DNA of 37,989 nucleotides, taken from Candidatus Woesearchaeota archaeon. Lineage in GTDB: Archaea; Nanobdellota; Nanobdellia; SCGC-AAA011-G17; PNOQ01. Positions 18,555-36,125 of the stretch are shown here, piece after piece. Numbering within the stretch: position 1 is the stretch's first letter; every line of letters starts with the position of its first letter. The position numbers were made by a program, and so were the translations under genes. The stretch lies in assembly GCA_043812195.1 (NCBI GenBank), contig JBDRML010000021.1, positions 1 through 37,989 on the forward strand, read 5' to 3'. The notes beneath the pieces were generated by a model. It did not search any database, was not told the origin of the DNA, and saw only the letters and a program-made list of their open reading frames with translations.

Positions 18555-19070
18555 ATGGCAACTTTTTTAGATTTAGGGGCAATGAATGTTTTGGAGTATT
18601 TCTTTCCTGCTTTTATTTTTATTTTAGTTTTTGTTTTGTTATATGCTACTTTAGATAAGACAGGATTAATTGGGAAAAATAAATCTTTGAATGTTACTGT
18701 AAGTTTGATAGTTGCTTTGACTGTTTTATTTAGTGGAAGTGCTGTTGAATTGATTAATTTTGTTACGCCTTGGTTTGCGGTTATAATTGTAATTTCTTTG
18801 TTAGCTATACTTGTTTTGTCTGCACATCTTAAAGAAGGTGCTGAGTTGAAGTTTAGTTTGGTTCATATATTGGCAATGATTTTTGCTGGTATAGTTTTAA
18901 TTGTTGGGATTACACAAGTTTTTGGTCCTGTGTTTACACCATTTGTTGAAGGGGCAGATCCTGATTGGTGGGCATTAAGAACTATATTTCATCCGAGAGT
19001 TTTAGGTGCAGTGTTTATTTTATTAGTTGCTGGATTTGCAATTAAATATCTTGCAGCTGTTAAAAAATAA
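18555..19070 (+). CDS. Conserved multi-TM hypothetical protein (paralog 3 of 3)
   Basis: PAFIFILVFVLLYATLDKT motif; 2-nt spacer from the previous gene. Confidence 0.8.
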   Translation: MATFLDLGAMNVLEYFFPAFIFILVFVLLYATLDKTGLIGKNKSLNVTVSLIVALTVLFSGSAVELINFVTPWFAVIIVISLLAILVLSAHLKEGAELKFSLVHILAMIFAGIVLIVGITQVFGPVFTPFVEGADPDWWALRTIFHPRVLGAVFILLVAGFAIKYLAAVKK

Positions 19071-19767: not shown

Positions 19768-20125
19768 TTTTACCTCTGTGTTTTTTTATTAGTTCTAATA
19801 CTTCTTCTTCAGTTACAAAATTTATTGGATTCCAGATATTAATATACTTTTCTAAAACTTTGAGTTGTTCTTTTCTTGCGAAAAACTGCATTTCTCTTAC
19901 AATACTATTCATTGTAGTCTTAATTGTCTCTAATCCTTCTTTTATATCTCTTATATCTTCATTTATCCCTTTCATATCTCCTTGAAGTGCTTTGTAATGA
20001 TCAACCATGTTTTGATTTATTACAAACATTCTTTCTCTAGTTAAGTTATATCTTCCTTCTAAAATTCTGATTCTTGTATTTATATTTCCTAATGTTGAGA
20101 ATGGATCTTGAGCAGCTACTTGCAT
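19703..20125 (-). CDS. Coiled-coil hypothetical protein
   Basis: Heptad pattern ending LEKYINIWNPINFV with a basic tail; SD GAGGT; divergent from the pilus ATPase. Confidence 0.75.
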   Translation of the reverse strand: MQVAAQDPFSTLGNINTRIRILEGRYNLTRERMFVINQNMVDHYKALQGDMKGINEDIRDIKEGLETIKTTMNSIVREMQFFARKEQLKVLEKYINIWNPINFVTEEEVLELIKKHRGKNATRTKKKRVSKSKARKRFKK

Positions 20126-20256: not shown

Positions 20257-23200
20257 ATGGTTATAACTCAGCAAAAGCTAAAACCTGGAGAATATGAGAT
20301 TATAAGAGAAGGACAAGAAGAAATTATGAAAGTTAATTCTTTTGGTTTGTCTTTTCCTCCATCTATTGAGCAGAGTAAATTGTGTATGATGGATGTTATT
20401 GATAAATTATTAGCTGTTCCAAGTATTAGTAGAATAATATTGTCTGCTGATAGAAATTATCAGTATGATGTTGATCAGATACAGATGATTAGAGAAATTG
20501 CTAATATATATTTATTTTTGACTAAACAGAAAAAAATATTGAGTTTAGATACTTTAGGTTTTAGTGTTGGATATGTAACTCAATTTCCATCTAGATTTTC
20601 TGAAATTCAGTATGTTGTTACTAATTTATTGAAAGGAGATCCTATTGGTGCTTATGTTGAAGTGAAAAGATTGATGAGAGAACAGAAAATTAGGATACAA
20701 AAAATTAAAGATGTTCAGATGTTGAGAGATGAGAACTCATATTTTAGAGTTCTTTTAGATATATATGAATTATTAGATAAGACTAATTTAATTAATAAAG
20801 TAAAACCATTTTTAGATGGGCACAGTATTGGAGATAGGTCTTTGTATAATCAGGTGTTTAGAGCGACTATTTCACCTAATTTTATGTTAACTAGATTGAT
20901 GTCTGAAATACCTTTAGATGGGGAGATTATTGATAGTTATATTTTAGATGAATATACACATGTTAGTATTATTAAGATGCCTAATAATGTTAAATTAAAA
21001 TATCATTTGAGTCCACCTGAATTTAATTTAACTGATGATAAGGTTGAATTATTAGAGTTGGCTAGGTTGGTTTTGTCTGAGCATAAGCCTGCTGCTGAAG
21101 AGTTTGTTGATCCTGAAAGAATGAGACAGACTTTTTTTAATATTGGAAGAGATTTGATTGCTGAATTAGCTGATAGAAAAGGGATTATGATTAGTTTTGA
21201 AGATAGCAAACATTTAGCTAATATTTTAGTTAGGTACACGGTTGGATTTGGATTGATTGAAGTATTATTGAAAGATGAAAAAATTCAAGATGTGGTTATT
21301 AATGGACCTATTGGGCAGAGTCCTATTTTTGTTGTGCATCAAGATTATGATGAATGTACTACAAATATAATTCCTAGTAAAGATGATGGTGATAGTTGGG
21401 CTACTAAATTTAGAATGATTTCTGGTAGACCTTTAGATGAAGCTAATCCTGTGTTAGATACTGAATTAATTATTCCTAATGCAAGAGCTAGAGTTGCAAT
21501 TATTTCTAGTCCATTAAATCCTGTTGGTTTAGGTTATGCTTTTAGAAGACATAGAGAGCATCCATGGACATTACCCTTGTTTATTAAACATAAAATGATT
21601 ACACCATTGGCTGCTGGTCTTTTGAGTTTTATTATTGATGGTGGAAGAACTTTGTTATTTGCTGGAACTAGGAGTTCTGGTAAGACGAGTCTTCTTGGTG
21701 CTAGTATGGTTGAGATAATGAGAACTCATAGAATATTGACGATAGAGGACACTCTCGAATTACCTGTTAGAAGTTTGAGAAAATTAGGTTATAACATTCA
21801 GCCTATGAAAGTTAGATCTGCATTGGCTTCTGGTGGTACTGAGTTGGCTGCTGAAGAGGGAATTAGAACTGCTTTAAGAATGGGAGATAGTAGTTTGATA
21901 GTTGGAGAGGTTAGAAGTTCTATTAGGGGAAATGAAGAAGTTATTGTTGTTGAAGATGATGTTTCTAAAAGAATTCCTATAAAAGAATTAGAAGGAAAAG
22001 TTATAGATAACATTTATGTGCCAAGTATGGATTTTGATTTAAAGGTTAAACTTTTGAAATTGACAGGTTTTGTAAAACATCCAAAAAGAGAGAGGCTTCT
22101 TGAAGTAACTACAAAAACTGGAAGAAAAGTTACGGTGACAGAGGATCATAGCTTATTTACCTCTAATGGCTTTGAAATATTTCCCATTAAATGCAAAGAT
22201 TTGAATGTCGGAAGCAAAGTTGTTTTACCTGCTAAGTTGCCTATAGGGTATAATGATTTAGATTTTATTGACTTAACACAAATGCTTCCAGAATATCATT
22301 TGGAAGGTGCTAGAGATTATATTAGGTTGGCAATAAATGAAATTGGAGCTAAAACGTGTTCCCAGATTTGTGAAGTTCCAGATGTTTACTCATTCTTTAC
22401 TGATAGGAATTATGTGAATAGCAGAGGTCCAGTCAGAAGGATAAAGGTGAAACCTTTCTTGGATCTTATGAAAGAATCTGACATAGATTATGGTTTAGAA
22501 AATTTAAAGATAAAAAAGATAACATCTAATACTCTTCCGGCTAAATTTCCTGTTAATAAAGAATTTTGTAGATTTTTGGGCTATTTTATATCTGAAGGAT
22601 GTGTAGAAGGGACTAATGTTTCTATAGCTAATACTGATCCTGATATTATTTCGGATGTTAAATCTATATGCTTTTCTTTATTTGATAAAGAACCAACACT
22701 TAGATTTAATAAATTCTCAAAAGGAAAATCGATAAAGATGGTACTAGCTAATTCACCTTTAATTGCATTATTAACCAAATTTGATTTGAATAGAAGGAGT
22801 TATGAAAAGAGAATACCTGGTTTTATTTATGGTTTAAGTAAGGAGAAAATATGTGCCTTCTTGAGAGGACTTTACCTTGGAGACGGTGCTTTTTCTGGCG
22901 TGAGAATGGAATACACAACCACTTCAAAAGAATTAGCTAATGACCTTCTTTATTTATTATTGGGTTTAGGAATAGTTGCTAGGGTTAGAGCTAAAAAACA
23001 AACTAAAAAATCCCAAGGGAAAAGACTGCTTTATAATGTGGAGTTTGCTAGGAAAGAAGATGTTAGGAATTTCATGAATCTTACTGGATTTTCACGAAAT
23101 AAGGAACTATTAGAGAAAAAAGAGGGTTTAGAAATTTCTACACAAAATGTCATTTCTTTTAGTAAGGAAGATATCTTTTTTAACTTTAATAAATTGTCTA

Positions 23201-24066
23201 AAAGATTTAATCATCTTAGGAGAGATTTGAGATGTAGTAAGTTTTATCTTAAGAAGATTATTGAGGATAAAGATATTGAATGCAGTGAAAAGGTAAAAAA
23301 ATTTGCTAATGGTGATTTTTATTTAGATGAAGTAAAGGAAATTAGAGGAATTGATTTGGAAGATGGAGAATATGTTTATGATCTTTCAGTTGAACCTTGC
23401 CAGAATTTTGTAGGTGGTTTTGGCGGTATTTTGTTGCATAACACAGAAGCAAAGGCCCTTTATGAAGCTATGAGAGTGGGAAGTTTGGCCAACGTGGTGG
23501 CTGGAACAATTCACGGTGGAAGTCCTTATGCTATTTTTGATAGAGTTGTGAATGATTTGGGAGTTCCTAGAACTAGTTTTAAGGCAACTGATATTATTAT
23601 TGTTTCTAATCCGATTAAGACTCCTGATTCTTTACATAGTGTTAGAAGAGTTGTTAGTATAACTGAAGTTAGAAAAGAATGGGAAGAAGATCCTTTGAGA
23701 GAAGGTGGTTTTGTTGATTTAATGAAATATAATCCTAAGACTGATGAATTAGAGCCTACAGATAGTTTGATAAATGGAGATTCTGAAGTTATCAAAAGTA
23801 TAGCTGGAAGTGTTAAGGAATGGGTTGGAGACTGGGATGCAGTTTGGGATAATATTGAATTGAGAGCTAAAATGAAAAGAAGATTAGTTGATTTGGTTAA
23901 GGAGACTGGAAATAATGATTTGTTAGAAGCTGATTTTGTGATTAAGGCTAATGATATGTTTCATATGATATCAGATGAAATATTGCAAAAGCAAGGAAAG
24001 TTAGATAGTAAAAAAATATATTTTAGATGGAATGAATGGTTGAAGAAGGAGAGTAGGAAGAAATGA
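20257..24066 (+). CDS. Type IV pilus/type II-IV secretion assembly ATPase (VirB11/TadA/ArlI family), intein-containing
   Basis: GFGLIEVLL.D.IQDV.INGP, Walker A GTRSSGKTS, Asp box IEDTLEL, Walker B VGEVR, His box GTIH. The spliced product is about 761 aa. Confidence 0.93.
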   Translation: MVITQQKLKPGEYEIIREGQEEIMKVNSFGLSFPPSIEQSKLCMMDVIDKLLAVPSISRIILSADRNYQYDVDQIQMIREIANIYLFLTKQKKILSLDTLGFSVGYVTQFPSRFSEIQYVVTNLLKGDPIGAYVEVKRLMREQKIRIQKIKDVQMLRDENSYFRVLLDIYELLDKTNLINKVKPFLDGHSIGDRSLYNQVFRATISPNFMLTRLMSEIPLDGEIIDSYILDEYTHVSIIKMPNNVKLKYHLSPPEFNLTDDKVELLELARLVLSEHKPAAEEFVDPERMRQTFFNIGRDLIAELADRKGIMISFEDSKHLANILVRYTVGFGLIEVLLKDEKIQDVVINGPIGQSPIFVVHQDYDECTTNIIPSKDDGDSWATKFRMISGRPLDEANPVLDTELIIPNARARVAIISSPLNPVGLGYAFRRHREHPWTLPLFIKHKMITPLAAGLLSFIIDGGRTLLFAGTRSSGKTSLLGASMVEIMRTHRILTIEDTLELPVRSLRKLGYNIQPMKVRSALASGGTELAAEEGIRTALRMGDSSLIVGEVRSSIRGNEEVIVVEDDVSKRIPIKELEGKVIDNIYVPSMDFDLKVKLLKLTGFVKHPKRERLLEVTTKTGRKVTVTEDHSLFTSNGFEIFPIKCKDLNVGSKVVLPAKLPIGYNDLDFIDLTQMLPEYHLEGARDYIRLAINEIGAKTCSQICEVPDVYSFFTDRNYVNSRGPVRRIKVKPFLDLMKESDIDYGLENLKIKKITSNTLPAKFPVNKEFCRFLGYFISEGCVEGTNVSIANTDPDIISDVKSICFSLFDKEPTLRFNKFSKGKSIKMVLANSPLIALLTKFDLNRRSYEKRIPGFIYGLSKEKICAFLRGLYLGDGAFSGVRMEYTTTSKELANDLLYLLLGLGIVARVRAKKQTKKSQGKRLLYNVEFARKEDVRNFMNLTGFSRNKELLEKKEGLEISTQNVISFSKEDIFFNFNKLSKRFNHLRRDLRCSKFYLKKIIEDKDIECSEKVKKFANGDFYLDEVKEIRGIDLEDGEYVYDLSVEPCQNFVGGFGGILLHNTEAKALYEAMRVGSLANVVAGTIHGGSPYAIFDRVVNDLGVPRTSFKATDIIIVSNPIKTPDSLHSVRRVVSITEVRKEWEEDPLREGGFVDLMKYNPKTDELEPTDSLINGDSEVIKSIAGSVKEWVGDWDAVWDNIELRAKMKRRLVDLVKETGNNDLLEADFVIKANDMFHMISDEILQKQGKLDSKKIYFRWNEWLKKESRKK
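21919..23442 (+). mobile_element. Intein (508 aa) with LAGLIDADG homing endonuclease
   Basis: Removal restores GEVRS|TEAKALYEAMRVG. Starts SIRGNEEV; block B VTEDHSLF; endonuclease FLGYFISEG and FLRGLYLGDG; block F YVYDLSV; ends LLHN before +1 Thr. Confidence 0.93.
24001..24050 (+). repeat. 50-bp direct repeat, copy 1 (ATPase 3' end)
   Basis: TTAGATAGTAAAAAAATATATTTTAGATGGAATGAATGGTTGAAGAAGGA; 49/50 identical to 24673-24722. Confidence 0.95.
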
Positions 24067-24656
24067 AAAATAAAGCCGTTTGGATTGGAGCTGTCATCGG
24101 AGCAATTATTGGATTAATTTTCTTCTTGCTAGGACTAATTATTGGGTTAAAAGTGCAACCTGTTATTTTTATAATAGGTTTTACTTTATTAGGGGGCTTG
24201 TTGGGATTAATAGCAAGTATCAAAAGGAAAAATATATGGATTTTATATTTTCTTTTGCTACTTATTGCTGTTATTAGCTTGTTTCTAACTATAAAATGGG
24301 GTGCACCACAGGTTCTATTAATTTTTGCTCCATTATTACTTTTGATTACCTTACATATATTTTTATGTAAATCTTTTTTTGGAAACACAGTAACGAGAGG
24401 AACAATAATACTTGGAGGGATAATTGGGTGGATATGGGGATTAATAAGTATATATGCGGGGGCTTTACTTCTTGAGAGGGATGTTACTTTCATTAAAATT
24501 TTGTTTGTTTTGCCTGTTTATCTATCTCGTAATATTTTTGGTAAGCCTCTTTTTGTTTCATTATCGCCGACTATAGGATCAATCATTGGTCTAATTATAG
24601 GATTAACTATAGCTCTAATTATTTTAGAACTAAAAAGAAAAAATGAAATCAAATAA
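24063..24656 (+). CDS. Multi-TM Gly-rich hypothetical membrane protein
   Basis: About 6 hydrophobic helices with GxxxG repeats; ATGA overlap with the ATPase stop; lies between the two 50-bp repeats. Confidence 0.75.
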   Translation: MKNKAVWIGAVIGAIIGLIFFLLGLIIGLKVQPVIFIIGFTLLGGLLGLIASIKRKNIWILYFLLLLIAVISLFLTIKWGAPQVLLIFAPLLLLITLHIFLCKSFFGNTVTRGTIILGGIIGWIWGLISIYAGALLLERDVTFIKILFVLPVYLSRNIFGKPLFVSLSPTIGSIIGLIIGLTIALIILELKRKNEIK

Positions 24657-24672
24657 AATATACAAAATAGAA

Positions 24673-24722
24673 TTAGATAGTAAGAAAATATATTTTAGAT
24701 GGAATGAATGGTTGAAGAAGGA
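24673..24722 (+). repeat. 50-bp direct repeat, copy 2 (orphan ATPase 3' end)
   Basis: TTAGATAGTAAGAAAATATATTTTAGATGGAATGAATGGTTGAAGAAGGA; reads LDSKKIYFRWNEWLKKE then AKNNNFLN*. Confidence 0.95.
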
Positions 24723-24767
24723 AGCAAAAAACAATAATTTTTTAAATTAGGCATTTTTCCCAAGTTT

Positions 24768-25211
24768 ATGAAAACTAATGATCTTATATTGACAAAAAGG
24801 ATAGACATCATGTGTATGAATGGAAGCATTGCAAATGCAAGAGTTCTCGAAAGAGATCATTATCTTATTATGGTTGATTTTGAACGAAAAGAAGAAACAC
24901 CATATATTGGATATTACGATTTTATTGATGATTTTGTAGAAACATTCCCTGCATATGAAAAAGGAGATGAACGTATAAACCATTTAAGCTACCATGATTT
25001 TAGCCATGATGAGTTTCCAATACATAATAACAACCAGGAGATTGGATTTTTCCATTGTGCTATATTTACTCTTAATTTACCTGGGAAAGGTTTTGAACTC
25101 TCCTTTATGCTAAATAAAAGTCACCCAAATTTTCAGAATGGTTTGGATGATTACGACTCTTTTTTGAGGAGATTAAAAAGAAGCCAAGACTACAGCGAAG
25201 AGCGCAGATAA
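24768..25211 (+). CDS. Hypothetical protein
   Basis: 147-aa ORF; by eye it uses more C/A-ending codons than neighbouring + strand genes; no family recognised. Confidence 0.6.
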   Translation: MKTNDLILTKRIDIMCMNGSIANARVLERDHYLIMVDFERKEETPYIGYYDFIDDFVETFPAYEKGDERINHLSYHDFSHDEFPIHNNNQEIGFFHCAIFTLNLPGKGFELSFMLNKSHPNFQNGLDDYDSFLRRLKRSQDYSEERR

Positions 25212-25281
25212 AAATTTCTATTGAACAAATTTATTCTTCTATCTGGATTTTGATTTTATTTAGAAACATTTAAAAACAATT

Positions 25282-25653
25282 ATGCTTAGAAAGAGATTAC
25301 CTATTAAAATTAAAATTAAGTATAATCATTGGTATGCAAAATTCTTGAAATTTATTTGGAGAAGCAAACTTGTTGCAATTATTATTTATCCTTACATTTT
25401 TGTTAGCGGGTCTAAAAAAATGGCATCAAAGTATAAGGTTATAGAACATGAAATGGCCCATGTTAAACAAATAGAAGAAGTAGGATGTTTTAAATTTTAT
25501 ACAAAATACTGTTTTGAGTTTATTATTAATTTTTTTAAATATTTTAGTTTTAGGAAGGCTTATCTTAATATTTCTTATGAAAAAGAGGCGTATAAAGAAC
25601 AAATAAAGTTAATTTACCCAAAAGGTACTCAACACTTAAAAGCTAAACTTTAA
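25282..25653 (+). CDS. Small HExxH zincin-like protein
   Basis: AIIIYPYIFV, HEMAHVKQ and YLNISYEKEAY (third-ligand Glu) form a minimal metallopeptidase-like pattern. Confidence 0.7.
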   Translation: MLRKRLPIKIKIKYNHWYAKFLKFIWRSKLVAIIIYPYIFVSGSKKMASKYKVIEHEMAHVKQIEEVGCFKFYTKYCFEFIINFFKYFSFRKAYLNISYEKEAYKEQIKLIYPKGTQHLKAKL

Positions 25654-25678
25654 AAACAATTATTCTTAAAATAAGTAT

Positions 25679-27808
25679 ATGCCAATAGATGATAAAGAGA
25701 TAGATGATATACTTTCTAAGTATAGAAAGAAGTTAGATAAGAGAATAAATAGCAGTGATATTGAACGTTATACTCCTGATCCTGAATTTTCTAGAGAATA
25801 TTTGAAGTTTAGAGAAGAAGCTATGTCTAAAGGAGTAACTAGTTATGAAAAATGGTGTAAGTTTTCTAGTAGTATTATTAAGGCTGGTGCTCCAACTAAA
25901 GGCAGAGAAGAATTAGAGGGAAATATTGAAAGAGCACATTTGGATATAACTCCAGGAGATGCAAGATCTTTTGGTATTTTAATTTCTGGTATTGTGATAT
26001 TATTATCTTTATTTGTTGGAGTAGCATCTTATTTAGCTAATGGAGGTCTTGGAATTCCATTTGTTAGTTCTTTAATAATTTTAATTGCTTTTTTAATGAT
26101 TGGACCATTAACTAATATCCCTAAAGGGATTGCTACTAAAATTAGATTAAAAATTGGAAATCAAATGGTTCTTTGTATTTTATATTTAGTTATTTACATG
26201 AGACATACTTCTAACTTAGAGAATGCAATTAAATTTACTGCTGATTTTATTGGAAATCCTTTAGCTTTAGATTTGAGAAAGATTTTTTGGGATGTGGAGG
26301 TTGGAAAATATACAACGATAAAAGAATCTCTTGATCATTATTTGATAACTTGGAGAGCTACTCATTTAGAATTTGTTAATTCTTTTCATTTAGTAATTAG
26401 TAGTTTGTATGAACCTAGTGAAGATAGAAGATTGGAATTGTTGGATAAATCATTGAATGTTATTTTAGAAGGAATTCATGATAAGATGATGAGATATGCC
26501 CAAGATCTTAAAAATCCAATAACTATGATTCATATGTTGGGTGTTATTTTACCTTTGCTTGGATTAGTTATATTTCCATTAGTTGGTGTTTTCATGGGAG
26601 GAAGTGTTAAGTGGTGGATGCTGGCTATTTTGTATAATTTAATGTTACCATTTATAGTTTATAGTGTTGGAAATAATATTTTAGCTAAAAGACCTAGCAG
26701 TAGTGGAGAAGTTGAGATTAAGCCTGATTCTCCTAAAGCTGCCTTAACGTTTTCTGTATTTTTACTTATTGTATTTGTTTTAATTGGAATATCTCCCTTT
26801 TTAATTCATGTTTTAGACCCTAGTTTTGATGTTCAATTTTTTGGAGGAGAATTATTGTTAGATTTTGAATGTGGTAGCGGAACATGTTTTGGACCTTTTG
26901 GATTTGGTGCATTATTATTGAGTTTATTTATTCCATTAGGATTAATTTTGTCTATTGGAATTTATTATGGTGTTAAAACTAATAGGTTTATGAAATTAAG
27001 AGCTAGGATTAAGAAATTAGAGACAGAATTTTCAAGTGCTTTATTTCAATTAGGAACGAGAATTGGAGATGGAATTCCTTCTGAAGTTGCTTTTAAGGAT
27101 GTAGCTGGTGTTATGCAGGGAACTCCTACTGGAAATTTCTTTAAAGATGTTTATCATAATTTAAGTAAATTAGGTATGACTTTAAAAGAGGCTATTTTTG
27201 ATAGAGAAAGGGGGGCTATTGTTTCTACACCTAGCTCTTTGGTTAGAAGTTCTATGCAAGTTCTTTTGGAAAGTGCAAAAAAGGGTCCTAAAATTGTTTC
27301 ACATTCTTTGATTAGTATTTCTAATTATGTAAATAATGTTCATAGAGTTAATGAAAGGTTAAGAGATTTATTGGCTGATATTATTGCTAGTATGCAGAGC
27401 CAGATTAAATTTATGGCTCCTGTTATTGGGGCTATTGTTGTTGGATTGGCTAGTATGATTGTGACTATAATTGCTCGTTTGCAAGCTATGCTTGATAGTA
27501 TTAATTCTGGTGAATTAAGTGCTGATGCAGTTGGGTTTGATATTGGCGGATTTGCTAATTTATTTCAAAAGACTGAAGCTATCCCAGGATATTTCTTTCA
27601 GATAATAGTTGGTGTTTATATTGTTCAAATTATTTATGTTTTGAGTGTTTTGAATAATGGAATTGAGTATGGTGTTGATGAATTAAATGAGAAGAATAGT
27701 ATTGGTAAGAATATGTTGAAGAGCGGATTATTGTATATTATTTTATCATTAATATTTATTTTATTATTTAATAGATTGGCTAATTTAGTTTTAACTGGAT
27801 TTACTTGA
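25679..27808 (+). CDS. Type IV pilus membrane platform protein (TadB/TadC/ArlJ-like, two T2SSF-type domains)
   Basis: Two cytoplasmic helical domains (YMRHTSNLENAIKF; FQLGTRIGDGIPSEVAF), each followed by TM bundles; located between the ATPase and the pilins. Confidence 0.85.
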   Translation: MPIDDKEIDDILSKYRKKLDKRINSSDIERYTPDPEFSREYLKFREEAMSKGVTSYEKWCKFSSSIIKAGAPTKGREELEGNIERAHLDITPGDARSFGILISGIVILLSLFVGVASYLANGGLGIPFVSSLIILIAFLMIGPLTNIPKGIATKIRLKIGNQMVLCILYLVIYMRHTSNLENAIKFTADFIGNPLALDLRKIFWDVEVGKYTTIKESLDHYLITWRATHLEFVNSFHLVISSLYEPSEDRRLELLDKSLNVILEGIHDKMMRYAQDLKNPITMIHMLGVILPLLGLVIFPLVGVFMGGSVKWWMLAILYNLMLPFIVYSVGNNILAKRPSSSGEVEIKPDSPKAALTFSVFLLIVFVLIGISPFLIHVLDPSFDVQFFGGELLLDFECGSGTCFGPFGFGALLLSLFIPLGLILSIGIYYGVKTNRFMKLRARIKKLETEFSSALFQLGTRIGDGIPSEVAFKDVAGVMQGTPTGNFFKDVYHNLSKLGMTLKEAIFDRERGAIVSTPSSLVRSSMQVLLESAKKGPKIVSHSLISISNYVNNVHRVNERLRDLLADIIASMQSQIKFMAPVIGAIVVGLASMIVTIIARLQAMLDSINSGELSADAVGFDIGGFANLFQKTEAIPGYFFQIIVGVYIVQIIYVLSVLNNGIEYGVDELNEKNSIGKNMLKSGLLYIILSLIFILLFNRLANLVLTGFT

Positions 27809-27843
27809 TTAGGCTAATATTTATAAATAGTAAAGGAGAAAGT

Positions 27844-27966
27844 ATGAATATGAAAAAAAGAGGTGCGATTTCAGATTATTTAACTGTTATTTTTGCTATT
27901 CTTTTTGCTCTTTTGCTATTGTTTGCATTTTGGTATTTTTTGAAAAGAGGTGGTGTTTTTGGATAA
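27844..27966 (+). CDS. Micro-pilin-like protein with class III signal peptide (40 aa, not in ORF track)
   Basis: MNMKKRG|AISDYLTVIFAILFALLLLFAFWYFLKRGGVFG*; SD AAGGAG upstream; overlaps the start of the next gene. Confidence 0.75.
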   Translation: MNMKKRGAISDYLTVIFAILFALLLLFAFWYFLKRGGVFG

Positions 27967-29374: not shown

Positions 29375-29532
29375 GAAATAAAAGAGGAGAAATTATTTGG
29401 AATAAGCTTGGATTGTGGATATTAGCTTTGATATTATTAATTATACTTTTATTGATAGTTTTTGAGCATAAAGGTTCTTTGACTAATTTTTTAAAAAGCA
29501 TAGGAGATATTTTTAGATATGGAGGGAGTTAA
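29365..29532 (+). CDS. Small pilin-like protein with class III signal peptide (55 aa, not in ORF track)
   Basis: MSLRNKRG|EIIWNKLGLWILALILLIILLLIVFEHKGSLTNFLKSIGDIFRYGGS*; SD GGAGGTG at 29346; TAATG coupling to 29532. Confidence 0.8.
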   Translation: MSLRNKRGEIIWNKLGLWILALILLIILLLIVFEHKGSLTNFLKSIGDIFRYGGS

Positions 29533-30299
29533 TGGGGATTGAACTTAGCGTAAAACAAATTATATATGCAATACTTATTATTTTACTAATACTTATTGTA
29601 ATTTTTGGACCTGGCAATCTTTTACGATCTCTTGGTTTGAATATTAATATATTTTCTAATCCTGAAGAGATAGAGACTCATAGAAAAGCTAATGAAGTAG
29701 GTGATAATTTATTTGATTATTTAAATAAGTGTGTTAACGATAGAACTGAAAGTGTTGAAGAATGTTTTTGTTTTAATAAAAATATAGAGTTGCCAACTAA
29801 TTATCTCTTGAAATTTTATAATAATAAGAATGATAGTAGTTTCAAGTTCGAACTTAAAACAAATAAAGGTGCTAAACTTAGAGAACATGGATGGATTAGT
29901 AATAGTGTTGTTTTAGGATGTTTAGATATTGGAAATTGTTTTTTGGGCTCTGATAAAATTGTTGAAGATGGAATTAATTTGATTTATTCTAATCCTTCTT
30001 TAATTCAAATTGAACCTAAAAATGGGAAAGAAGTAAATTCAGAATTTGATGAGAATTATGTTTTCTTTTATTCTTTTAAGCCTAATGATAAAAAAGCTAC
30101 GATGTATTTGGTTTCTAAATCTTATGCATATAGGCAAATAAGGGATGGTGCTAAATTTTGTGGTGAAGAAGATTTAATTCAGTATACTAATAGAATGGAA
30201 TCATATTTGATTAATTATCCTTCTTCTAATATGGCTATAGAATATGATGATTTTGGTTTATTTGGATATGGTGGTTGGGCTAGTGAGGTGACTGAATAA
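29532..30299 (+). CDS. Pilin-like/membrane-anchored protein
   Basis: MG|IELSVKQIIYAILIILLILIVIF: pilin-like H-domain with a truncated leader; Cys-containing extracellular domain. Confidence 0.6.
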   Translation: MGIELSVKQIIYAILIILLILIVIFGPGNLLRSLGLNINIFSNPEEIETHRKANEVGDNLFDYLNKCVNDRTESVEECFCFNKNIELPTNYLLKFYNNKNDSSFKFELKTNKGAKLREHGWISNSVVLGCLDIGNCFLGSDKIVEDGINLIYSNPSLIQIEPKNGKEVNSEFDENYVFFYSFKPNDKKATMYLVSKSYAYRQIRDGAKFCGEEDLIQYTNRMESYLINYPSSNMAIEYDDFGLFGYGGWASEVTE

Positions 30300-30300
30300 G

Positions 30301-31836
30301 ATGAAGAAATATGTGCTTTTTTTTGTGCTTTTTATTGGAATGGTTTCTTTAGTTAATGGTGCTGATTTAACATGTGATAGTCAATATGTTGTTCAAAAAG
30401 GCGATAGTGCTTGGGATTTATGGAATGAGTATGAAGATCAATTAGATATTGATTGGGCTCAATTTCAGACTTTAAACCCACATATAGATGAATTAAATAT
30501 CATTGATATTGGAGATGTTCTTTGTTTATCTAATGAATATAAAAAGATTAAGTATACAGTGAAAGCCAGAGATACATTATTAGAAATATGGCAAAAATAT
30601 GCTAAACCATTTGGACTTACTTCTTGGGATGAATTTGTTTCTGTGAATGAAATTAGTGATATTAATTTGATAGATATTGGAGAACAATTTGTGATATCTA
30701 AGAAATTTAATAAAAAGCAAAGAGATGAAGATGGAGAATTGATTATGAATTCAAAGAAAATTGATTATTATACTTTAGAGTATGGTGATGATTTGCCTGC
30801 TCTTTATCGAGTATTTGATTATGCGAATGCTATCGAAGATGTTGTATCTTTAAATAAAAAATTGAATGAATTTTATGAAGATAGAAATAGAGATTTAAGA
30901 CATAGTTTCTATGTAGTTACTTTTCCAGGTAGTGGTTCTTTTTATGGTAACATGTTTGCAGCTTACTTATATTATGAAAAGATAGGTAGTCCAAATGCTA
31001 ATTCTTTTTTGATTGTTTATTATAAAGATGACAAATTTATTAGTGTTATAGGGGCAGATAGTAAGGCTGAATATACTAAGAAATTGTATGAGGCTATTAA
31101 TGGTAATAGCTATTTGACAGAAGATTATAAATTTGATTTGGGAAAAACTATTTTGAATGGAATACTTGAAGTAACTGATTTAGATGAAAATAGTATTCAG
31201 AAGTTTTTTGGGTTTTTTGAAGATTGGCTTAAGATAAATAAAGATGAAAGAAAAGCTAAGTTGGAGAATGCTATTTATTATGCAAAGAAAAATAGTATAG
31301 TAGAAAGAACTTGCGACTGTGGAGATGAATGTGAAGATTATGCAAAATTGATTTTAGAAAATTCAGAAAAAAATAATATTGATCCTTTATTGAGTTTATC
31401 TTTAATGATGCAGGAAAGTAGTTGTAATAGTGAAGCTAAATCAGGTACCTCATGTGGATTATATCAAATTCCTTGTGAAACTTCTAATTGGAAAGATCCT
31501 GAAATTAATGTGCCAAAAGGACATCAAATTTTGAGAGAGAAATATGGTTATTTTAATCATAATGTTTGTTCATTAGATAAAGATTGCAAACCTAAATTTG
31601 TTAATTTTTGTGGTACAGAAAATTGTAGATCTGATTGCTCTGATGGATATTGTTATTATGAATTTGTTGGCTGTGGATCAAATAAGAGACAGAATGATAA
31701 TGGGCATTTGTTTTATTCTGGCTGGAATGCGGCTATAAGGGCTTATAATGGATGGGGATGTGATACTACACTAAAAAATCAAGATAAATTTGCTGATGAA
31801 GTTTGGAATAGGTACTTAGAACTTAAAAAAGTTTAA
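30301..31836 (+). CDS. Secreted LysM-LysM-TPM-like-SLT lytic transglycosylase
   Basis: Sec signal (MKKYVLFF..VNG/AD). LysM1 YVVQKGDS..LNP..IDIGDVLCL and LysM2 YTVKARDTL..N.I.DINLIDIGEQFVI. SLT motifs: IDPLL..MMQES (E372), GLYQI, DPEINV..G..IL and AAIRAYNG.G. Confidence 0.88.
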   Translation: MKKYVLFFVLFIGMVSLVNGADLTCDSQYVVQKGDSAWDLWNEYEDQLDIDWAQFQTLNPHIDELNIIDIGDVLCLSNEYKKIKYTVKARDTLLEIWQKYAKPFGLTSWDEFVSVNEISDINLIDIGEQFVISKKFNKKQRDEDGELIMNSKKIDYYTLEYGDDLPALYRVFDYANAIEDVVSLNKKLNEFYEDRNRDLRHSFYVVTFPGSGSFYGNMFAAYLYYEKIGSPNANSFLIVYYKDDKFISVIGADSKAEYTKKLYEAINGNSYLTEDYKFDLGKTILNGILEVTDLDENSIQKFFGFFEDWLKINKDERKAKLENAIYYAKKNSIVERTCDCGDECEDYAKLILENSEKNNIDPLLSLSLMMQESSCNSEAKSGTSCGLYQIPCETSNWKDPEINVPKGHQILREKYGYFNHNVCSLDKDCKPKFVNFCGTENCRSDCSDGYCYYEFVGCGSNKRQNDNGHLFYSGWNAAIRAYNGWGCDTTLKNQDKFADEVWNRYLELKKV

Positions 31837-31890
31837 ACAGAAAGCTTTAAATATTAATTAGTTGATTTTAAATTATTGAGGTGAATATAG

Positions 31891-32223
31891 TTGTTAAATA
31901 AAAAAGGTCAAGGATTACAGGTTTCTACTGTTATAATTATTATTCTTGCTCTATTAGTTTTAGTTATTTTAGCTGTTATAGTTACTGGTGGATTTGCTGA
32001 ATTTGCTGAGAAGATAGGATTTATAAAAAAGACTTCAATTTCTTTAGATGATGCTAAATTAGATTGTCAATCTTGGTGTAATTCTCCTAATTCTGATATT
32101 CGTAAGAAGTTTTGTGGAAGTAGAACAGATAAATTTAAGATAGATAGTGATGGAGATGGAAAAGATGAACTTTATTCGTGTGAAGATTTAGGTCTTGCAT
32201 GTCCTGCTGTAGATTGTTCATAA
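31891..32223 (+). CDS. Type IV pilin (class III signal peptide; candidate major pilin)
   Basis: KKG|QGLQVSTVIIIILALLVLVILAVIV; own promoter-like AGAAAGCTTTAAAT and SD GAGGTG; 6 Cys; DSDGDGKDE loop. Confidence 0.85.
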   Translation: MLNKKGQGLQVSTVIIIILALLVLVILAVIVTGGFAEFAEKIGFIKKTSISLDDAKLDCQSWCNSPNSDIRKKFCGSRTDKFKIDSDGDGKDELYSCEDLGLACPAVDCS

Positions 32224-32249
32224 AAGTAAATTAATTTATTATTTATAAA

Positions 32250-32432
32250 ATGTTTAATAAAAAAGGTGAAGGATTATCTATAAGCACTATTGTATATTTG
32301 ATTCTTGGTTTATTGGTTTTAATTTTACTTATTTTAATTTTTACTGGGCAAGCTAGTTCTATTTTTGATAGTGTTAAAGAAACAATTCAAAATGTTTTAG
32401 GAATGGAACCTAGTTTAGAAGGTGTAAAATGA
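32250..32432 (+). CDS. Short type IV pilin (class III signal peptide)
   Basis: KKG|EGLSISTIVYLILGLLVLILLILIFTG; the N-terminus is paralogous to the 31891 gene. Confidence 0.8.
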   Translation: MFNKKGEGLSISTIVYLILGLLVLILLILIFTGQASSIFDSVKETIQNVLGMEPSLEGVK

Positions 32433-32944
32433 ATAAAATAGGGGAATTGTCAAAAACTATTTGGATAATTGCCAGTATATCTCTTGGTATTGTTGCATTA
32501 CTTTTTGTTCTTTTTCTTTTGAATACTGTTTATGGTTTGATTTTTGGAGGTGGTGGAGTTGATGATGAAACTAAAGAGACTTTTGAAGGACTTTCTATTG
32601 CATTAGAGAAATTAGAAGGAAGTGGTGATATTCTTTTTAAGTTTAGTAAAAGTTATAGCATGATTATTTTTGATAAAAGTAACTCTGCTTCCGGCGATAT
32701 TGGATATTATACTAGGCCATCTTCTTGTTTTAATACAGCATGTATAGTTTTATGTAAAGATAAATCTAATCAGGATTCTTGTTTAGAATCTAAATATATA
32801 ATTTATAATAATATTGATAGTTTTGGTACTTCTTCTGACAAAGGAATAGTTTATCCAGCTGAAATTGGAAAGTCTAAGGATGAGTTGAAATTATTAGAAT
32901 TTGTTAAATCTGATAATACTATTGAACTTAATGTTGCTAATTAA
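32429..32944 (+). CDS. Minor pilin-like protein
   Basis: NKIG|ELSKTIWIIASISLGIVALLFVLFLL; ATGA overlap; Cys pairs. Confidence 0.7.
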   Translation: MNKIGELSKTIWIIASISLGIVALLFVLFLLNTVYGLIFGGGGVDDETKETFEGLSIALEKLEGSGDILFKFSKSYSMIIFDKSNSASGDIGYYTRPSSCFNTACIVLCKDKSNQDSCLESKYIIYNNIDSFGTSSDKGIVYPAEIGKSKDELKLLEFVKSDNTIELNVAN

Positions 32945-33010
32945 GAGGATTCTTAAAATATTAGTGAGTTCAAAAACATTATATATATGTAATTTTATAT
33001 TCTTGTTGAT

Positions 33011-33406
33011 ATGGAAGAATCACAGTCTTTAATATGGGTTGGATATATAGTTCTAGTCGTTCTAGTTTTTTTGGGATTATTTGGGATTATGAATAAGATG
33101 GTAGATAATTCTGGTATTAAACAAGAATTATATGCAAGAGATGCTTCATTAATTGAAAGTATTTTATTAACTAATAATTATGATCATAATGTTAGTGTCA
33201 ATATTGATTCTGATTTTGAGTATTCTTTTAATGGATGTAGTGTTCTTGTAAATAAGAAAGGAACAAATTTAGAATCTGCTGCAAAATATTTCTGTGCTGA
33301 TAATTTAGTTGTTAATAGGGTTTATAATGCTAGTTTTGATTATGATTCTTTATTTTTTAAGTTGAAAGATAATGAATTGAGTGGGTTGGTGGTTATTAAT
33401 GAATAA
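33011..33406 (+). CDS. Pilin-like/membrane-anchored protein
   Basis: N-terminal H-domain without a basic leader; ARD-containing helix then a beta-rich domain; inside the pilin cluster. Confidence 0.6.
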   Translation: MEESQSLIWVGYIVLVVLVFLGLFGIMNKMVDNSGIKQELYARDASLIESILLTNNYDHNVSVNIDSDFEYSFNGCSVLVNKKGTNLESAAKYFCADNLVVNRVYNASFDYDSLFFKLKDNELSGLVVINE

Positions 33407-33890
33407 AAGAGGAATATCTAATGAATATGAGATGCCACAGATGCTTTTTTATGCTTTCATGGTTCTTTTAGTTTCTTTAGTATTATTATTTGGTTTTGGA
33501 ATTGGCGTTAAAAAAGATGTTGATACAGTTTCATTGGAAAGAACTATTAGTGAGTATAGATTGTTTAATTCTCCTGATTGTTTTGGCTATTTAGATGATG
33601 GTTTTTTTGTTAAAGGTGTTATAGATAGGGAGAAATTTAATGAAGATGTTCTTGGTAATTGTTTAGCTTATCCAGATGGAAAAATACAAGGAATTAAATT
33701 GAAATTAAAAGATATAGAAGGTAATGATTTAGAGAATATAGAATTGAATGATAAACTAGTTAGCCAAATGTTTGCTTGTGAACATAGTGACGATTATGAA
33801 TGTTTTAATGATAGAAAATATATTTTGTATAAAGAAAATGATCAAATTAAAAGAGGTGTATTGGATTTTTTGATAATAAGTGAAAAATGA
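33399..33890 (+). CDS. Minor pilin-like protein
   Basis: The start is more likely ATG 33399 than GTG 33381, giving MNKRG|ISNEYEMPQMLFYAFMVLLVSLVLL. Confidence 0.7.
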   Translation: MNKRGISNEYEMPQMLFYAFMVLLVSLVLLFGFGIGVKKDVDTVSLERTISEYRLFNSPDCFGYLDDGFFVKGVIDREKFNEDVLGNCLAYPDGKIQGIKLKLKDIEGNDLENIELNDKLVSQMFACEHSDDYECFNDRKYILYKENDQIKRGVLDFLIISEK

Positions 33891-34417
33891 TTAATAAAAA
33901 AGCTCTTATGTTGATTTCTGATCCTTTTGCTATTATTGGTATTCTTATTTTATTAGGTGCTTATATGGCTATAATGATTGGTTTTGGTGTTGGAGGATAT
34001 ACTTACATATACACAAATGATTTTTCTTTTACTAGTGTGAATTTATATTCTTATTTAGAGAGTCCTGTAGATGATTCTAGAATGGTTGATTTGCTAAGAG
34101 AATATGTTGAGAGTGATTTTAGTGATATTAATTTAGAAAATAAGATTAAGGATGAAAGTATAATAATCTTAAGAAAGCTTAATTTCTGTGCTAATGAAAA
34201 TTCTTATTATAATTATATACTTTTAGAGAATGAGGATAATGAACTTAGAATATTCTCATCTAATTTTGCTGAAGATCTTTATTTGAAAAGAGATCAAGAT
34301 AGTCTTTCTTCAACAACAGATCAGAGAATTCCTTATGATGATGGTATATTTTTTGTTAGATTTGGTGCTTTTATTGAGGATGATGATAAAGGTTGTAGCG
34401 AGGTGGTGAGTGTATGA
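33887..34417 (+). CDS. Minor pilin-like protein
   Basis: NKKA|LMLISDPFAIIGILILLGAYMAIM; ATGA overlap. Confidence 0.7.
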   Translation: MINKKALMLISDPFAIIGILILLGAYMAIMIGFGVGGYTYIYTNDFSFTSVNLYSYLESPVDDSRMVDLLREYVESDFSDINLENKIKDESIIILRKLNFCANENSYYNYILLENEDNELRIFSSNFAEDLYLKRDQDSLSSTTDQRIPYDDGIFFVRFGAFIEDDDKGCSEVVSV

Positions 34418-35157
34418 ATAAAAGAGGATTTTTGATGCTCTCTTTGTTTATTTTTACAATTATAGCAGTTGGTATTGCTCTTTATGTTTCCTCTACTATT
34501 AGTAATGTGGCCTTTTCTGAGAATTTAGGAGATATACAGCTTGGTGTAATGAACAATTCTAATTTAATATATGAAGAATTATATTTTAAAAATGAAATCC
34601 TGAAATCAACTGCAGGAGATTCTGTTTTTGAACTTGGAAATGTTGGTGGGGTTTTTGATGGTGAGTTTGTTGATGATTACAATGTTTGGTATAGGGGTGG
34701 AAAAGAATGTTGGCCTAATGAAGATAGTTTAACTGAGAATTATATTTTGGTTCTTGAAGATAAAATGGATTTCTATGAAGAATCTGATTATAATTTAAAA
34801 ATAGAAAAAGAAGATTCAGGTTTTATTAAAATTATTAGCGAGCTTGAAATATATAATGAAATTCTTAAAGATGATTATAATGTGAGTACATTTTCTGATG
34901 AAGGTTTAACTTATACTCTAGAATATAATTTTGATGATTTTGAAACAAAGGTTAAGAATATTAGAGATGATATTTTAGTAGAGTGTTCTGATGATTTTGC
35001 ATGTTGGGAAGAGAAAAAGAATTCTAGAAATTGGTTCAAAAGTCTTGATGTGAATGGGAAAGTATTTAAGTTCAAGCTCGTTTCTGATTCTGTTGGGGGA
35101 GAAGAGGTGATTATAAAGGGGGCTATCGACTTTAACGAAGGTAATTTAGAATGTTAA
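34414..35157 (+). CDS. Minor pilin-like protein
   Basis: NKRG|FLMLSLFIFTIIAVGIAL; LGNVGG motif; acidic extracellular domain; ATGA overlap. Confidence 0.7.
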   Translation: MNKRGFLMLSLFIFTIIAVGIALYVSSTISNVAFSENLGDIQLGVMNNSNLIYEELYFKNEILKSTAGDSVFELGNVGGVFDGEFVDDYNVWYRGGKECWPNEDSLTENYILVLEDKMDFYEESDYNLKIEKEDSGFIKIISELEIYNEILKDDYNVSTFSDEGLTYTLEYNFDDFETKVKNIRDDILVECSDDFACWEEKKNSRNWFKSLDVNGKVFKFKLVSDSVGGEEVIIKGAIDFNEGNLEC

Positions 35158-36125
35158 AATTTAGTTATTCTGAGATTGTTGAAAAAATACAGAAAGAAAA
35201 AAGTTTGAGTAAAGAAGAGATAGATAAAAAAATAAAAGAGAAAATGGCTCAACTTTCTGATTTGGTTAGCATGGAAGGTGCTGCCCACATAGTTGCTAAT
35301 CAATTAGGTGTTAAATTATTTGAAAATTTTGAGAATAAAGAATTGAAAATAAATGATGTTCCTAAAGCTGCTAATGCAATTACTATTGCAGGAAGAGTTG
35401 TTGATTTTTGGGGTATTAGAGAATTTAATAAAAATGGAAGAAGTGGTAGAGTTGCTAATTTTTTGATTGGAGATGAAACTGGTGCTGTTAGGATTGTAGT
35501 TTGGGATGAACCTATAATTAATAAAGTTGCTAATTTGAAAGAAGGTGATATTGTTAGAGTTAAGAATTCTTATTCTAGGGAAAATAGAGGTTATATGGAA
35601 TTGCATTTAGGTAGCAGATCTGAAATTGATATAAATCCTAAAGGTGTGGAAATTGGTGAAGTTAATATTAAATTGAATTCTCCTAAAGCTACTAAGAAAA
35701 ATATTAATGAATTAAAAGAAGGGGACGAATCTGAGTTATTTGGTACTATTGTTCGAATGTTTGATCCTAATTTTTATTTTGTGTGTCCTAATTGTATGAG
35801 GAAGGTAATTCCTATAGGTGCTAAATATAATTGTAATGAGCATGGAGAAGTTGAAGCTAAAAAAATGCCTGTTTTTAATTTGTTTTTTGATGATGGGACT
35901 GAAAGTATTAGGTCTGTAGTGTTTGCCCAACAGACTAAAGATTTGATTGGTTCTGAATTTAGTGAGGATAGTAATTTAGAGGCTATTAAAAGTGAATTAT
36001 TGGGTAAACAGATTATTTTAATTGGTAGGGCTGTTAAAAATCAGATGTTTGGAAGATTAGAATTTGTTGTTAGAGCTATAAAAGAAGCTGACCCCTCTCA
36101 ATTGATTAAGGAATTAGAAAAATGA
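35151..36125 (+). CDS. rpa: Replication protein A (ssDNA-binding; OB folds plus zinc finger)
   Basis: GAAHIVANQLGV N-terminal motif, OB fold GRVAN..IGDETGAVRIVVW, Zn finger CPNC..CNEH, second OB DDGTESIR. Confidence 0.88.
   Translation: MLKFSYSEIVEKIQKEKSLSKEEIDKKIKEKMAQLSDLVSMEGAAHIVANQLGVKLFENFENKELKINDVPKAANAITIAGRVVDFWGIREFNKNGRSGRVANFLIGDETGAVRIVVWDEPIINKVANLKEGDIVRVKNSYSRENRGYMELHLGSRSEIDINPKGVEIGEVNIKLNSPKATKKNINELKEGDESELFGTIVRMFDPNFYFVCPNCMRKVIPIGAKYNCNEHGEVEAKKMPVFNLFFDDGTESIRSVVFAQQTKDLIGSEFSEDSNLEAIKSELLGKQIILIGRAVKNQMFGRLEFVVRAIKEADPSQLIKELEK

Follow-up and report, generated by a model that had tools for sequence, protein, structure and literature searches.

Several bacterial filament and secretion machines carry a lytic transglycosylase of the SLT family, such as VirB1 (type IV secretion), EtgA (type III secretion), FlgJ and BfpH (bundle-forming pilus), in each case encoded by a small gene that lies within the operon of the machine itself. 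These enzymes cut the beta-1,4 bond between N-acetylmuramic acid (MurNAc) and N-acetylglucosamine (GlcNAc), a bond that pseudomurein does not contain, and those of the VirB1/EtgA/BfpH type open the sacculus of their own producer. Sulfolobus possesses a bindosome assembly system (Bas), in which proteins with class III signal peptides bear functional globular domains and which has a dedicated ATPase and platform. The type IV pili of ultrasmall episymbiotic bacteria are reportedly the subject of a study on Saccharibacteria. Among the DPANN archaea, Pacearchaeota and Woesearchaeota were described as having large extracellular transglycosylases of a murein-like kind, in a paper that also carries the notion of bacterial hosts or prey (PMC8204110, 2021, citing Rinke 2013 and Castelle 2015), and the idea also appears in PMC9723730 (Vigneron et al. 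2022) and PMC10936187; the transglycosylase passages of PMC8204110 and PMC9723730 mention neither pili nor pilin-like partners. The subject of this study is a stretch of 37,989 nucleotides (nt) from a Candidatus Woesearchaeota archaeon (contig JBDRML010000021.1, assembly GCA_043812195.1; contig C21 of the genome, hereafter the window), in which a type IV filament operon at 20257-35157 contains the gene for a secreted protein with two LysM modules and an SLT domain. A first-pass annotation of the window had proposed that the archaeon uses this pilus to dock on and perforate bacterial cells. Its observation is confirmed here with small corrections and its interpretation is partly supported, while a bacterial target, called notable there, was already in print in the three papers cited above.

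All open reading frames (ORFs) named in the first-pass annotation lie on the plus strand, and at 9 of the 16 junctions the neighbouring genes overlap or are separated by 1 nt, in line with the co-oriented and largely coupled run that had been described. The tight junctions are those from the ATPase gene to a 197-residue membrane protein (-4 nt), from the 474- to the 55-residue pilin-like gene (-10), from the latter to the 255-residue one (-1), and from this gene to the LysM-SLT gene (+1; 30299/30301), followed downstream by those between the 60- and 171-residue (-4), 131- and 169-residue (-26), 169- and 176-residue (-4) and 176- and 247-residue (-4) pilin-like genes and between the last of these and replication factor A (-7). 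The remaining gaps measure 25-141 nt. The position of the enzyme gene directly behind a pilin-like gene had thus been described correctly. However, the locus had been extended to 36125, and the last ORF in that range encodes replication factor A, which lies outside the pilus system, so that the locus ends at 35157.

The enzyme begins with a signal peptide of the Sec type, MKKYVLFFVLFIGMVSLVNGA (read by eye). Its LysM part matches Pfam PF01476 with 64.6 bits in two stretches (cut-off 20.9), and its SLT part matches PF01464 over residues 350-421 with 28.4 bits (cut-off 21.3), or 29.9 bits in the genome scan. The catalytic residue Glu372 (nt 31414-31416) is invariant in an alignment of 18 rows (the enzyme and 17 relatives), in which A478, Y482 and G484 are also invariant and S373, M388 and Q389 nearly so. 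The motifs MMQESSC, GLYQI and AYNGWGC keep the E-S, GLMQ-like and AYNxG-like motifs of the SLT family, and the enzyme is intact. In the AlphaFold2 (AF2) model, most of residues 310-420 and 470-511 have a predicted local distance difference test (pLDDT) score of 84-98, and the N-terminal two thirds fold with low confidence. Foldseek places the SLT part closest to MltF (4oz9; E 3e-3, prob 1.00), then to MltE, including a structure with chitopentaose, MltC, Slt (Slt70-type), LtgA and g-type lysozymes (prob 0.98-1.00), and the modelled part accordingly has a goose-lysozyme-like alpha-helical fold. Searched by sequence against the PDB, the enzyme has no match at E <= 0.01.

The orphan middle of about 130 residues has no relative among 1.84 billion representatives. 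A search of that set with residues 1-320 (E <= 0.001) returned 78 proteins including the enzyme itself, and the best stretches of the 77 others lie almost all inside residues 3-192, i.e., the LysM part. Neither the LysM part nor the orphan middle has relatives among all ORFs of the homologous loci fetched for comparison. A structure comparison in the ESM Atlas hints at a possible TPM-like fold for residues 150-325 (window 30750-31260), with template modelling (TM) scores of 0.55-0.62 and a model pLDDT of 0.59; a search of the Atlas by features gave no usable match. The genome also encodes a second SLT protein of 326 residues with an N-terminal membrane anchor and a Pfam SLT match of 50 bits (G000:C29, about 67.5-68.5 kb; L001 1204-2184, minus strand), whose gene lies between those of EF-1alpha and S10, distant from any pilin gene. 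A LysM module guessed by eye at the end of this second protein was not confirmed by Pfam at E <= 0.01.

The genome around the window comprises 938,338 bases in 45 contigs (90.4% complete, 1.4% contaminated). The window carries the archaeal markers Cdc6/Orc1, PolD DP1 and DP2, a proteasome-activating AAA ATPase and replication factor A, and the description of the producer as a small-genome archaeon holds for this 0.94-Mb DPANN genome. The profiles Mur_ligase_M, Transpeptidase, Transgly and FtsW/RodA (SEDS) find no match in it, at 90% completeness, and each finds a match in 10-12 of the 14 named genomes that served as control. Because these four murein-synthesis families are absent, the substrate should be foreign within the limit of that completeness, as had been supposed. 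A producer without murein in turn makes the bacterial wall the probable target.

The ATPase of the operon matches Pfam T2SSE with 32.6 bits (cut-off 24.9). Among NCBIfam models, it scores 109 bits against FlaI (E 1e-31) and 97 bits against the TadA type (E 1e-28), both under the equivalog cut-offs, and 44 bits against BasE, for which the cut-off is 1000. It is interrupted by a LAGLIDADG intein of the homing-endonuclease type (Intein_splicing 73.6 bits, LAGLIDADG_3 74.5 bits). The two exteins share 66% and 72% identity with the 772-residue homologue of locus L018, which has no intein, the break falls directly after GEVRS, and the ATPase ORFs of the relatives are uninterrupted, with about 730-770 residues where complete. 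The platform protein, called TadC/ArlJ-like in the first-pass annotation, keeps this assignment by fold and not by profile. Its AF2 model (pLDDT 79, predicted TM score 0.76) finds its top Foldseek match in a model of the type IVa pilus machine, namely in the platform chain 3jc8_Ca (E 0.17, prob 0.77), and at domain level resembles the cytoplasmic parts of EpsF, OutF and PilC (prob 0.98-1.00, TM 0.67-0.72). LysM, SLT and T2SSE are all found above their Pfam cut-offs, whereas the platform is matched by no Pfam family, with no T2SSF match at E <= 0.1; a profile built from 14 homologues met only chance-level membrane-protein matches among PDB sequences (E >= 0.049). At the level of the predicted fold only, the protein is of the GspF/PilC/TadC type. 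Of 61 relatives, 59 carry its gene, and within the order 223 of 240 genomes do; the genomes encoding the closest platform proteins are labelled as Candidatus Woesearchaeota, Candidatus Pacearchaeota or Nanoarchaeota metagenome-assembled genomes.

Pilin-like genes were called with a regular expression of our own, [KR][GA] ahead of a 19-residue window of mean hydropathy > 2.5, rather than with a dedicated predictor. The pilin series described before is present, but its count is 10 and not about 11; seven members have [KR][GA] before the hydrophobic N-terminal stretch, and three have a hydrophobic N-terminus only. Among the seven genes downstream of the enzyme, whose order is kept in relatives, MLNKKGQGLQVSTVIIIIL and MFNKKGEGLSISTIVYLIL are examples of the N-termini, the former showing the [KR][GA] motif ahead of the hydrophobic helix. 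The 60-residue protein has a weak Flp1_like match (17.8 bits, under the cut-off), and neither the platform nor the pilin-like proteins receive an NCBIfam name. A prepilin peptidase (Peptidase_A24, 65.7 bits) is encoded elsewhere in the genome.

Two of the pilin-like proteins have peculiarities of their own. The 474-residue protein contains 16 Cys and is larger than the homologues of the relatives (mostly 240-300 residues), and its Cys-rich C-terminal extension has no relative among all ORFs of the fetched loci. In the 110-residue candidate major pilin, codons 33-68 (31989-32093), just past the hydrophobic helix, differ in metagenome run X1 at 22 of about 105 bases, many of the differences being non-synonymous, while the flanks are near-identical; the variant is partly seen in run X2. 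The stretch looks like a hypervariable exposed region.

The window was compared with 20 fetched homologous loci, 13 from the same family and 7 others, in which the gene order is nearly constant: a PRC-barrel gene, three membrane proteins and two coiled-coil genes on the opposite strand are followed by the ATPase, platform, pilin-like series, replication factor A and a small membrane protein. Homologues of the three pilin-like genes at 27950-30299 stand in the same order in the relatives. A linkage of the LysM-SLT gene itself to homologous loci was not found, the gene being absent from 13/13 same-family loci and from the 7/7 others, which had been examined first; such an absence is an outcome that the first-pass annotation had itself named as refuting. 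By this comparison, the LysM-SLT gene is a single-lineage insertion into a conserved operon. It shares this status with the intein, the three ORFs at 24063-25653 and a papain-like protease gene at 36148-37251, all of which are peculiar to this genome.

The SLT domain has a wider distribution than the LysM-SLT gene. A homologous domain occurs in 13 of 24 same-family genomes, mostly in ORFs of 1230-3034 residues, to which the enzyme domain is 30-53% identical over the best segment and 31-43% identical in the domain alignment (ORFs of 1373-3034 residues). Ten same-family loci of this kind were compared; in eight of them the gene of the giant SLT protein starts before the preceding gene has ended, and this preceding gene encodes a pilin-like protein of 652-690 residues, which starts with MKKRGQVTIF, while contig ends truncate the remaining two. 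These loci (L038-L047) encode secreted giants of 1216-3029 residues, translationally coupled to the upstream pilin-like gene, and in one example of 2068 residues Pfam finds nothing besides SLT. The present genome holds no such giant, as tblastn with three of them matches only the SLT domain of the enzyme. It does hold a second pilin-like cluster (L061; G000:C16:69633-77146, minus strand) with a 278-residue protein starting MNKRGQVTIF, a 1203-residue secreted protein without a Pfam family and four further small pilin-like genes, which may be the counterpart of the pilin-like and giant SLT pairs of the relatives without the SLT domain.

Across the order, the SLT profile gives 124 matches in 97 of 240 genomes. 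At least 11 of these 124 share a contig with the platform gene and follow it at a distance of no more than 10 kb downstream, as do at least 9 of 110 M23 matches and at least 3 Amidase_2 matches, compared with about 1.5 (SLT) and 1.4 (M23) expected by uniform placement in 800-kb genomes (Poisson), an expectation that ignores relatedness and therefore overstates significance, as kin are not independent. The counts were tallied by hand from 150 of the 239 platform rows, with three genomes (G236, G200 and G128) counted by coordinates only, and are lower bounds. Altogether, SLT, M23 or amidase domains occur within this distance in at least 18 of 240 genomes from 8 of 29 families and were captured in at least four different operon slots. 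In 14 inspected loci, the hydrolase domain sits inside the N-terminally hydrophobic proteins of the locus itself, and in 11 of 15 such proteins the hydrophobic N-terminus is preceded by [KR]G or VKG. The proposed link between pilus and hydrolase therefore stands for the homologous loci, where hydrolase domains recur in pilin-like subunits, but the gene in the window is unique to its genome. By these comparative data, murein hydrolysis has a real functional tie to this filament operon conserved in DPANN archaea. Three ORFs outside the pilus locus also combine such domains, namely SLT with Amidase_2 in 1271 residues (G117:C1, about 8.3-9.7 kb), M23 with Amidase_2 in 1230 residues (G138:C4, about 51.4-52.7 kb) and M23 with SLT in 636 residues (G124:C19, about 8.9-10.2 kb).

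Pilin-like N-termini were also found in 6 of 7 database relatives of the enzyme SLT domain (P0002-P0006 and P0008). The nearest, P0002, is a pilin-SLT fusion that shares a Cys-rich insertion with the enzyme and is encoded in a homologous locus on a 292-kb metagenome contig. Its gene stands directly before a small KKGQ-type pilin, which is the slot of the enzyme gene, and a Peptidase_A24 gene follows two genes on. The simplest history suggested by this arrangement would be that the pilin-SLT gene of this slot swapped its pilin N-terminus for a Sec signal and LysM modules, or the reverse.

A mechanism may be proposed from these results, in which the filament operon co-makes a LysM-SLT enzyme that opens the bacterial sacculus at the point of contact. 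The operon, with its ATPase, fused platform and ten pilin-like subunits, would make a filament or short pseudopilus; the lineage would have gained the enzyme gene inside the operon, directly ahead of the candidate major pilin, and the enzyme would be translated along with the filament and exported by Sec. The two LysM modules would bind murein glycan and hold the enzyme there, the GH23/SLT domain would cleave the MurNAc-GlcNAc bond where the filament grips a bacterial cell, and the opened sacculus would serve attachment, feeding or lysis. Pilin-like subunits carrying SLT, M23 or amidase domains may do the same job in other families of the order. We regard the proposal for the window as having a somewhat better than even chance of being correct. 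Its extension to an order-wide lytic pilus, whose minor subunits are murein hydrolases, or which is made together with a LysM-anchored transglycosylase, and which catches and drills bacteria, is tentative and seems to us rather more doubtful than probable.

Several points weigh against the proposal. An SLT gene was found in 0 of the 13 same-family loci, either by blastp or with a hidden Markov model of the domain, and a hydrolase lies in the locus in only about 7.5% of the genomes of the order, so that most of them run the filament without such an enzyme. The SLT score of 28.4 bits is modest, and among 5.8 billion proteins no full-length relative of the enzyme was found in the length band of 281-895 residues, the seven matches covering the SLT part only. 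As the N-terminus is of the Sec type and not pilin-type, entry of the enzyme into the filament is not expected. No Pfam class III family is matched by the pilin-like proteins, whose class III signal peptides are motif-level calls. GH23 includes lysozymes and chitinases besides transglycosylases, and LysM can bind chitin. Finally, the filament, the murein activity and the bacterial host are predictions from genes and models.

Since SLT and LysM are typically bacterial domains, an assembly artefact, with a bacterial gene wrongly built into an archaeal contig, has to be weighed, and chimerism over 30.3-31.8 kb was accordingly looked at. The stretch is present in groundwater metagenome runs, and contigs of four runs (X1-X4) from four studies, one of which may itself be the source of the assembly, were compared with 28500-33500. 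The upstream junction at 30300 is bridged by contigs of 4/4 runs, one of them with zero differences over 1686 bases, and the downstream junction at 31836-31891 in 2/4 runs; between runs, the enzyme gene shows four synonymous and three non-synonymous differences, with none at the motif residues. Because contigs of independent runs bridge both junctions, the locus is not chimeric unless one error is common to all of them. G+C (25-34%) and the steady positive GC skew of the locus also continue unbroken through 30-32 kb, and the SLT domain groups with SLT domains of same-order relatives, which leaves the artefact a practically negligible chance. The gene may then be real and its position in a highly expressed region accidental, the product being a freely diffusing, bacteriocin-like bacteriolytic weapon or a scavenger of wall debris. 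Such a reading gains from the gene being a single-lineage insertion among others (the intein, the three small ORFs and the papain-like protease), from the second SLT gene between EF-1alpha and S10, and from the secreted archaeal murein hydrolases known to kill bacteria (PMC12352652). However, hydrolase domains have entered this operon repeatedly, in several slots and eight families, the nearest homologue, itself fused to a pilin, occupies the slot of the enzyme gene, and the 1-nt spacing suggests coupled translation. The free enzyme is ranked less likely because of this recurrence, and we consider it distinctly improbable.

An unlikely but more serious competitor, the main one, retains the link to the hydrolases and concerns the machine, which instead of a long adhesive pilus could be a short pseudopilus of the type II secretion kind or a bindosome-like array. 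It would expel hydrolases or keep them anchored at the cell surface, with the enzyme as one Sec-exported cargo released through the S-layer. Functional globular domains on pilin-like N-termini recall the class III binding proteins of the Sulfolobus bindosome, the pilin-like genes number ten, all different, and the candidates for the major subunit are very small, the Sec signal is like that of type II secretion substrates, and the ATPase weakly matches BasE (44 bits). The BasE score is, however, far under its cut-off, and no secretin or S-layer conduit is known here, although none was searched for; the conserved 60- and 110-residue pilins suit a filament-forming major pilin, one of them being hypervariable between strains like an exposed subunit. 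It may also be asked whether the substrate is some other GlcNAc polymer, such as chitin, the pseudomurein of a methanogen host, or an envelope glycan of the producer that is opened for filament assembly. To our knowledge, every characterised DPANN host is an archaeon, and the Foldseek matches to MltE with chitopentaose and to g-type lysozymes, like the chitin binding of LysM, would fit such a substrate. The bond cut by SLT enzymes is missing in pseudomurein, as stated above, and the four wall-synthesis families tested were not found in the genome. Engineered LysM forms do bind pseudomurein (PMC12352652, citing Visweswaran 2012). Orthologous loci nevertheless carry M23 and Amidase_2 or Amidase_3 domains, which act on murein peptide stems and have no target in chitin, so that murein rather than chitin is the common target. 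A non-murein substrate is unlikely because of these partner domains in relatives, and we give it very little credence.

Table 1. Positions of the operon, its neighbours and the prepilin peptidase gene (window coordinates unless a contig is given; aa, amino acids), with hydrolase-bearing homologous loci in the last rows
Feature	Position	Strand	Length	Basis or detail
Three paralogous membrane proteins	17447-18001, 18001-18552, 18555-19070	+		syntenic with ATPase gene
Two coiled-coil-like proteins	19078-19767, 19703-20125	-		syntenic with ATPase gene
Type IV filament assembly ATPase (T2SSE/VirB11 superfamily)	20257-24066	+	1269 aa	Pfam
Intein in ATPase	21919-23442		508 aa	ATPase residues 555-1062
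Insertion: polytopic membrane protein and two further proteins	24063-25653	+	197, 147 and 123 aa	ORFs
Platform protein, polytopic, GspF/PilC/TadC-like by fold	25679-27808	+	709 aa	AF2 and Foldseek
Pilin-like, Cys-rich C-terminal extension	27950-29374	+	474 aa	hydrophobic N-terminal helix, KG/RG motif
Pilin-like	29365-29532	+	55 aa	hydrophobic N-terminal helix, KG/RG motif
Pilin-like	29532-30299	+	255 aa	hydrophobic N-terminal helix
Secreted LysM-LysM-orphan-SLT protein	30301-31836	+	511 aa	Pfam, alignment, AF2
Parts of this protein (residues)				signal peptide ~1-21; LysM ~29-76 and ~83-134; orphan middle ~190-320; GH23/SLT ~320-511
Pilin-like	31891-32223	+	110 aa	major-pilin candidate
Pilin-like	32250-32432	+	60 aa	major-pilin candidate
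Pilin-like pil171	32429-32944	+		hydrophobic N-terminus
Pilin-like pil131	33011-33406	+		hydrophobic N-terminus
Pilin-like pil169	33381-33890 (likely true start 33399)	+		hydrophobic N-terminus
Pilin-like pil176	33887-34417	+		hydrophobic N-terminus
Pilin-like pil247	34414-35157	+		hydrophobic N-terminus
Replication factor A (single-stranded DNA-binding)	35151-36125	+		Pfam OB fold; NCBIfam replication factor A, E 2.5e-50
Secreted Cys-rich papain-family protease	36148-37251	-		Peptidase_C1, 65 bits
Prepilin peptidase	G000:C3:11220-11591			Peptidase_A24
Locus L027				SLT+Amidase_2, 91 and 105 bits
Loci L050, L059				SLT+M23
Locus L058				M23+Amidase_3 in homologue of the 247-aa protein
Locus L052				SLT in homologue of the 247-aa protein; M23 in homologue of the 131-aa protein
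Loci L054, L055				same M23-then-SLT pair as L052
Locus L026			211 aa	SLT protein; gene begins on the first base past the platform stop

Of the 20 homologous loci, 18 have the block of membrane and coiled-coil-like genes upstream of the operon beside the ATPase gene in unchanged order and orientation, and in the other two (L025 and L032) the outermost gene of the block falls outside the fetched range. No Pfam family is matched in this block at E <= 0.001, save one sub-threshold Laminin_II match, and its products may be unrecognised parts of the machine. The three ORFs inserted between the ATPase and platform genes are absent from the relatives, where these two genes are adjacent in 19 of 20 loci (L025 has a 2.1-kb gap); no Pfam family exceeds its cut-off in them, the 123-residue protein showing an HExxH-like EHEMAH and a weak match to the metallopeptidase-like DUF6782. 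At the other end, replication factor A occupies the same place in relatives, its start overlapping the last pilin-like gene. In the window, the papain-family protease gene separates it from the small membrane protein; the two are neighbours in most relatives, which makes the papain-like gene a lineage-specific insertion and its product a second lineage-specific secreted hydrolase beside the locus.

Woesearchaeota and Pacearchaeota are among the most abundant uncultured archaea of groundwater. Their transglycosylases hinted at bacterial partners without a delivery mechanism, for which the conserved filament operon now supplies a concrete hypothesis. According to a 2026 survey of archaeal type IV filaments (PMC13705601), in which transglycosylase and peptidoglycan do not occur as words, DPANN archaea rarely have an ordered locus and their pilins are scattered; the present comparison revises this view. 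A survey of archaeal peptidoglycan hydrolases (PMC12352652) describes them as prominent in Nanoarchaeota. It considers only Sec and Tat signals, a known signal peptide being assigned to 32% of the homologues, and never mentions pilin, prepilin or type IV. No publication was found on murein hydrolases in a DPANN pilus operon or on pilin-like proteins, supplementary tables lying outside the search, and the pilus link and the pilin fusions are undescribed as far as the literature was searched, whereas bacterial targets had been suggested before. Enzyme-bearing pilins are added to the known uses of type IV filaments, and a set of unusual Cys-rich murein hydrolases is on offer. The lytic pilus, if true, would add a functional class to the type IV filaments and be the first molecular mechanism of parasitism or predation by an archaeon on a bacterium.

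Compared with the machine-linked transglycosylases of the VirB1, EtgA and BfpH type, the present producer lacks the four murein-synthesis families, and the wall to be opened would be that of another cell rather than its own. The Sulfolobus Bas resembles the homologous loci in that functional domains are carried on pilin-like N-termini beside an ATPase-platform pair; however, the domains of the relatives are murein hydrolases and not solute-binding, the window enzyme is of the Sec type, and the similarity to BasE is weak. With its Sec-type signal, the enzyme also differs from the pilin-fused murein hydrolases of its own relatives, in which the hydrolase bears the pilin-like N-terminus. The closest parallels come from bacteria. 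Vampirococcus lugosii (PMC8080830) is a reduced-genome epibiont with rich pilus genes and with secreted murein hydrolases and giant surface proteins that would act on a bacterial host, but epibionts of this type are bacteria with murein of their own, and the passages available do not describe hydrolases in a pilus operon or as pilin fusions. In Omnitrophota (bioRxiv 10.1101/2023.11.21.568195), an SLT domain in a giant protein lies beside a GspE/GspF-type locus, akin to type II/IV secretion, and small class III-like genes, which parallels the pairs of giant SLT and pilin-like genes in the family of the window; that organism is, in contrast, a bacterial predator of archaea with proteins of > 30,000 residues, and no pilin fusion is reported in the portion available. 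Woldo and Danwoldo of Halogranum (PMC12352652) share the modular build of binding and catalytic parts, are made by an archaeon without murein and kill bacteria, although they are M23 or glucosaminidase proteins with PG_binding_1 rather than LysM-SLT. The giant DPANN transglycosylases (fam00969, Castelle 2021, PMC8204110) come from the same group of organisms, belong to the same SLT family and have the same inferred action on bacterial walls. In contrast to these multi-kiloresidue proteins, the enzyme of the window has only 511 residues, combines its SLT domain with two LysM modules and an orphan middle, and is encoded inside a pilus operon.

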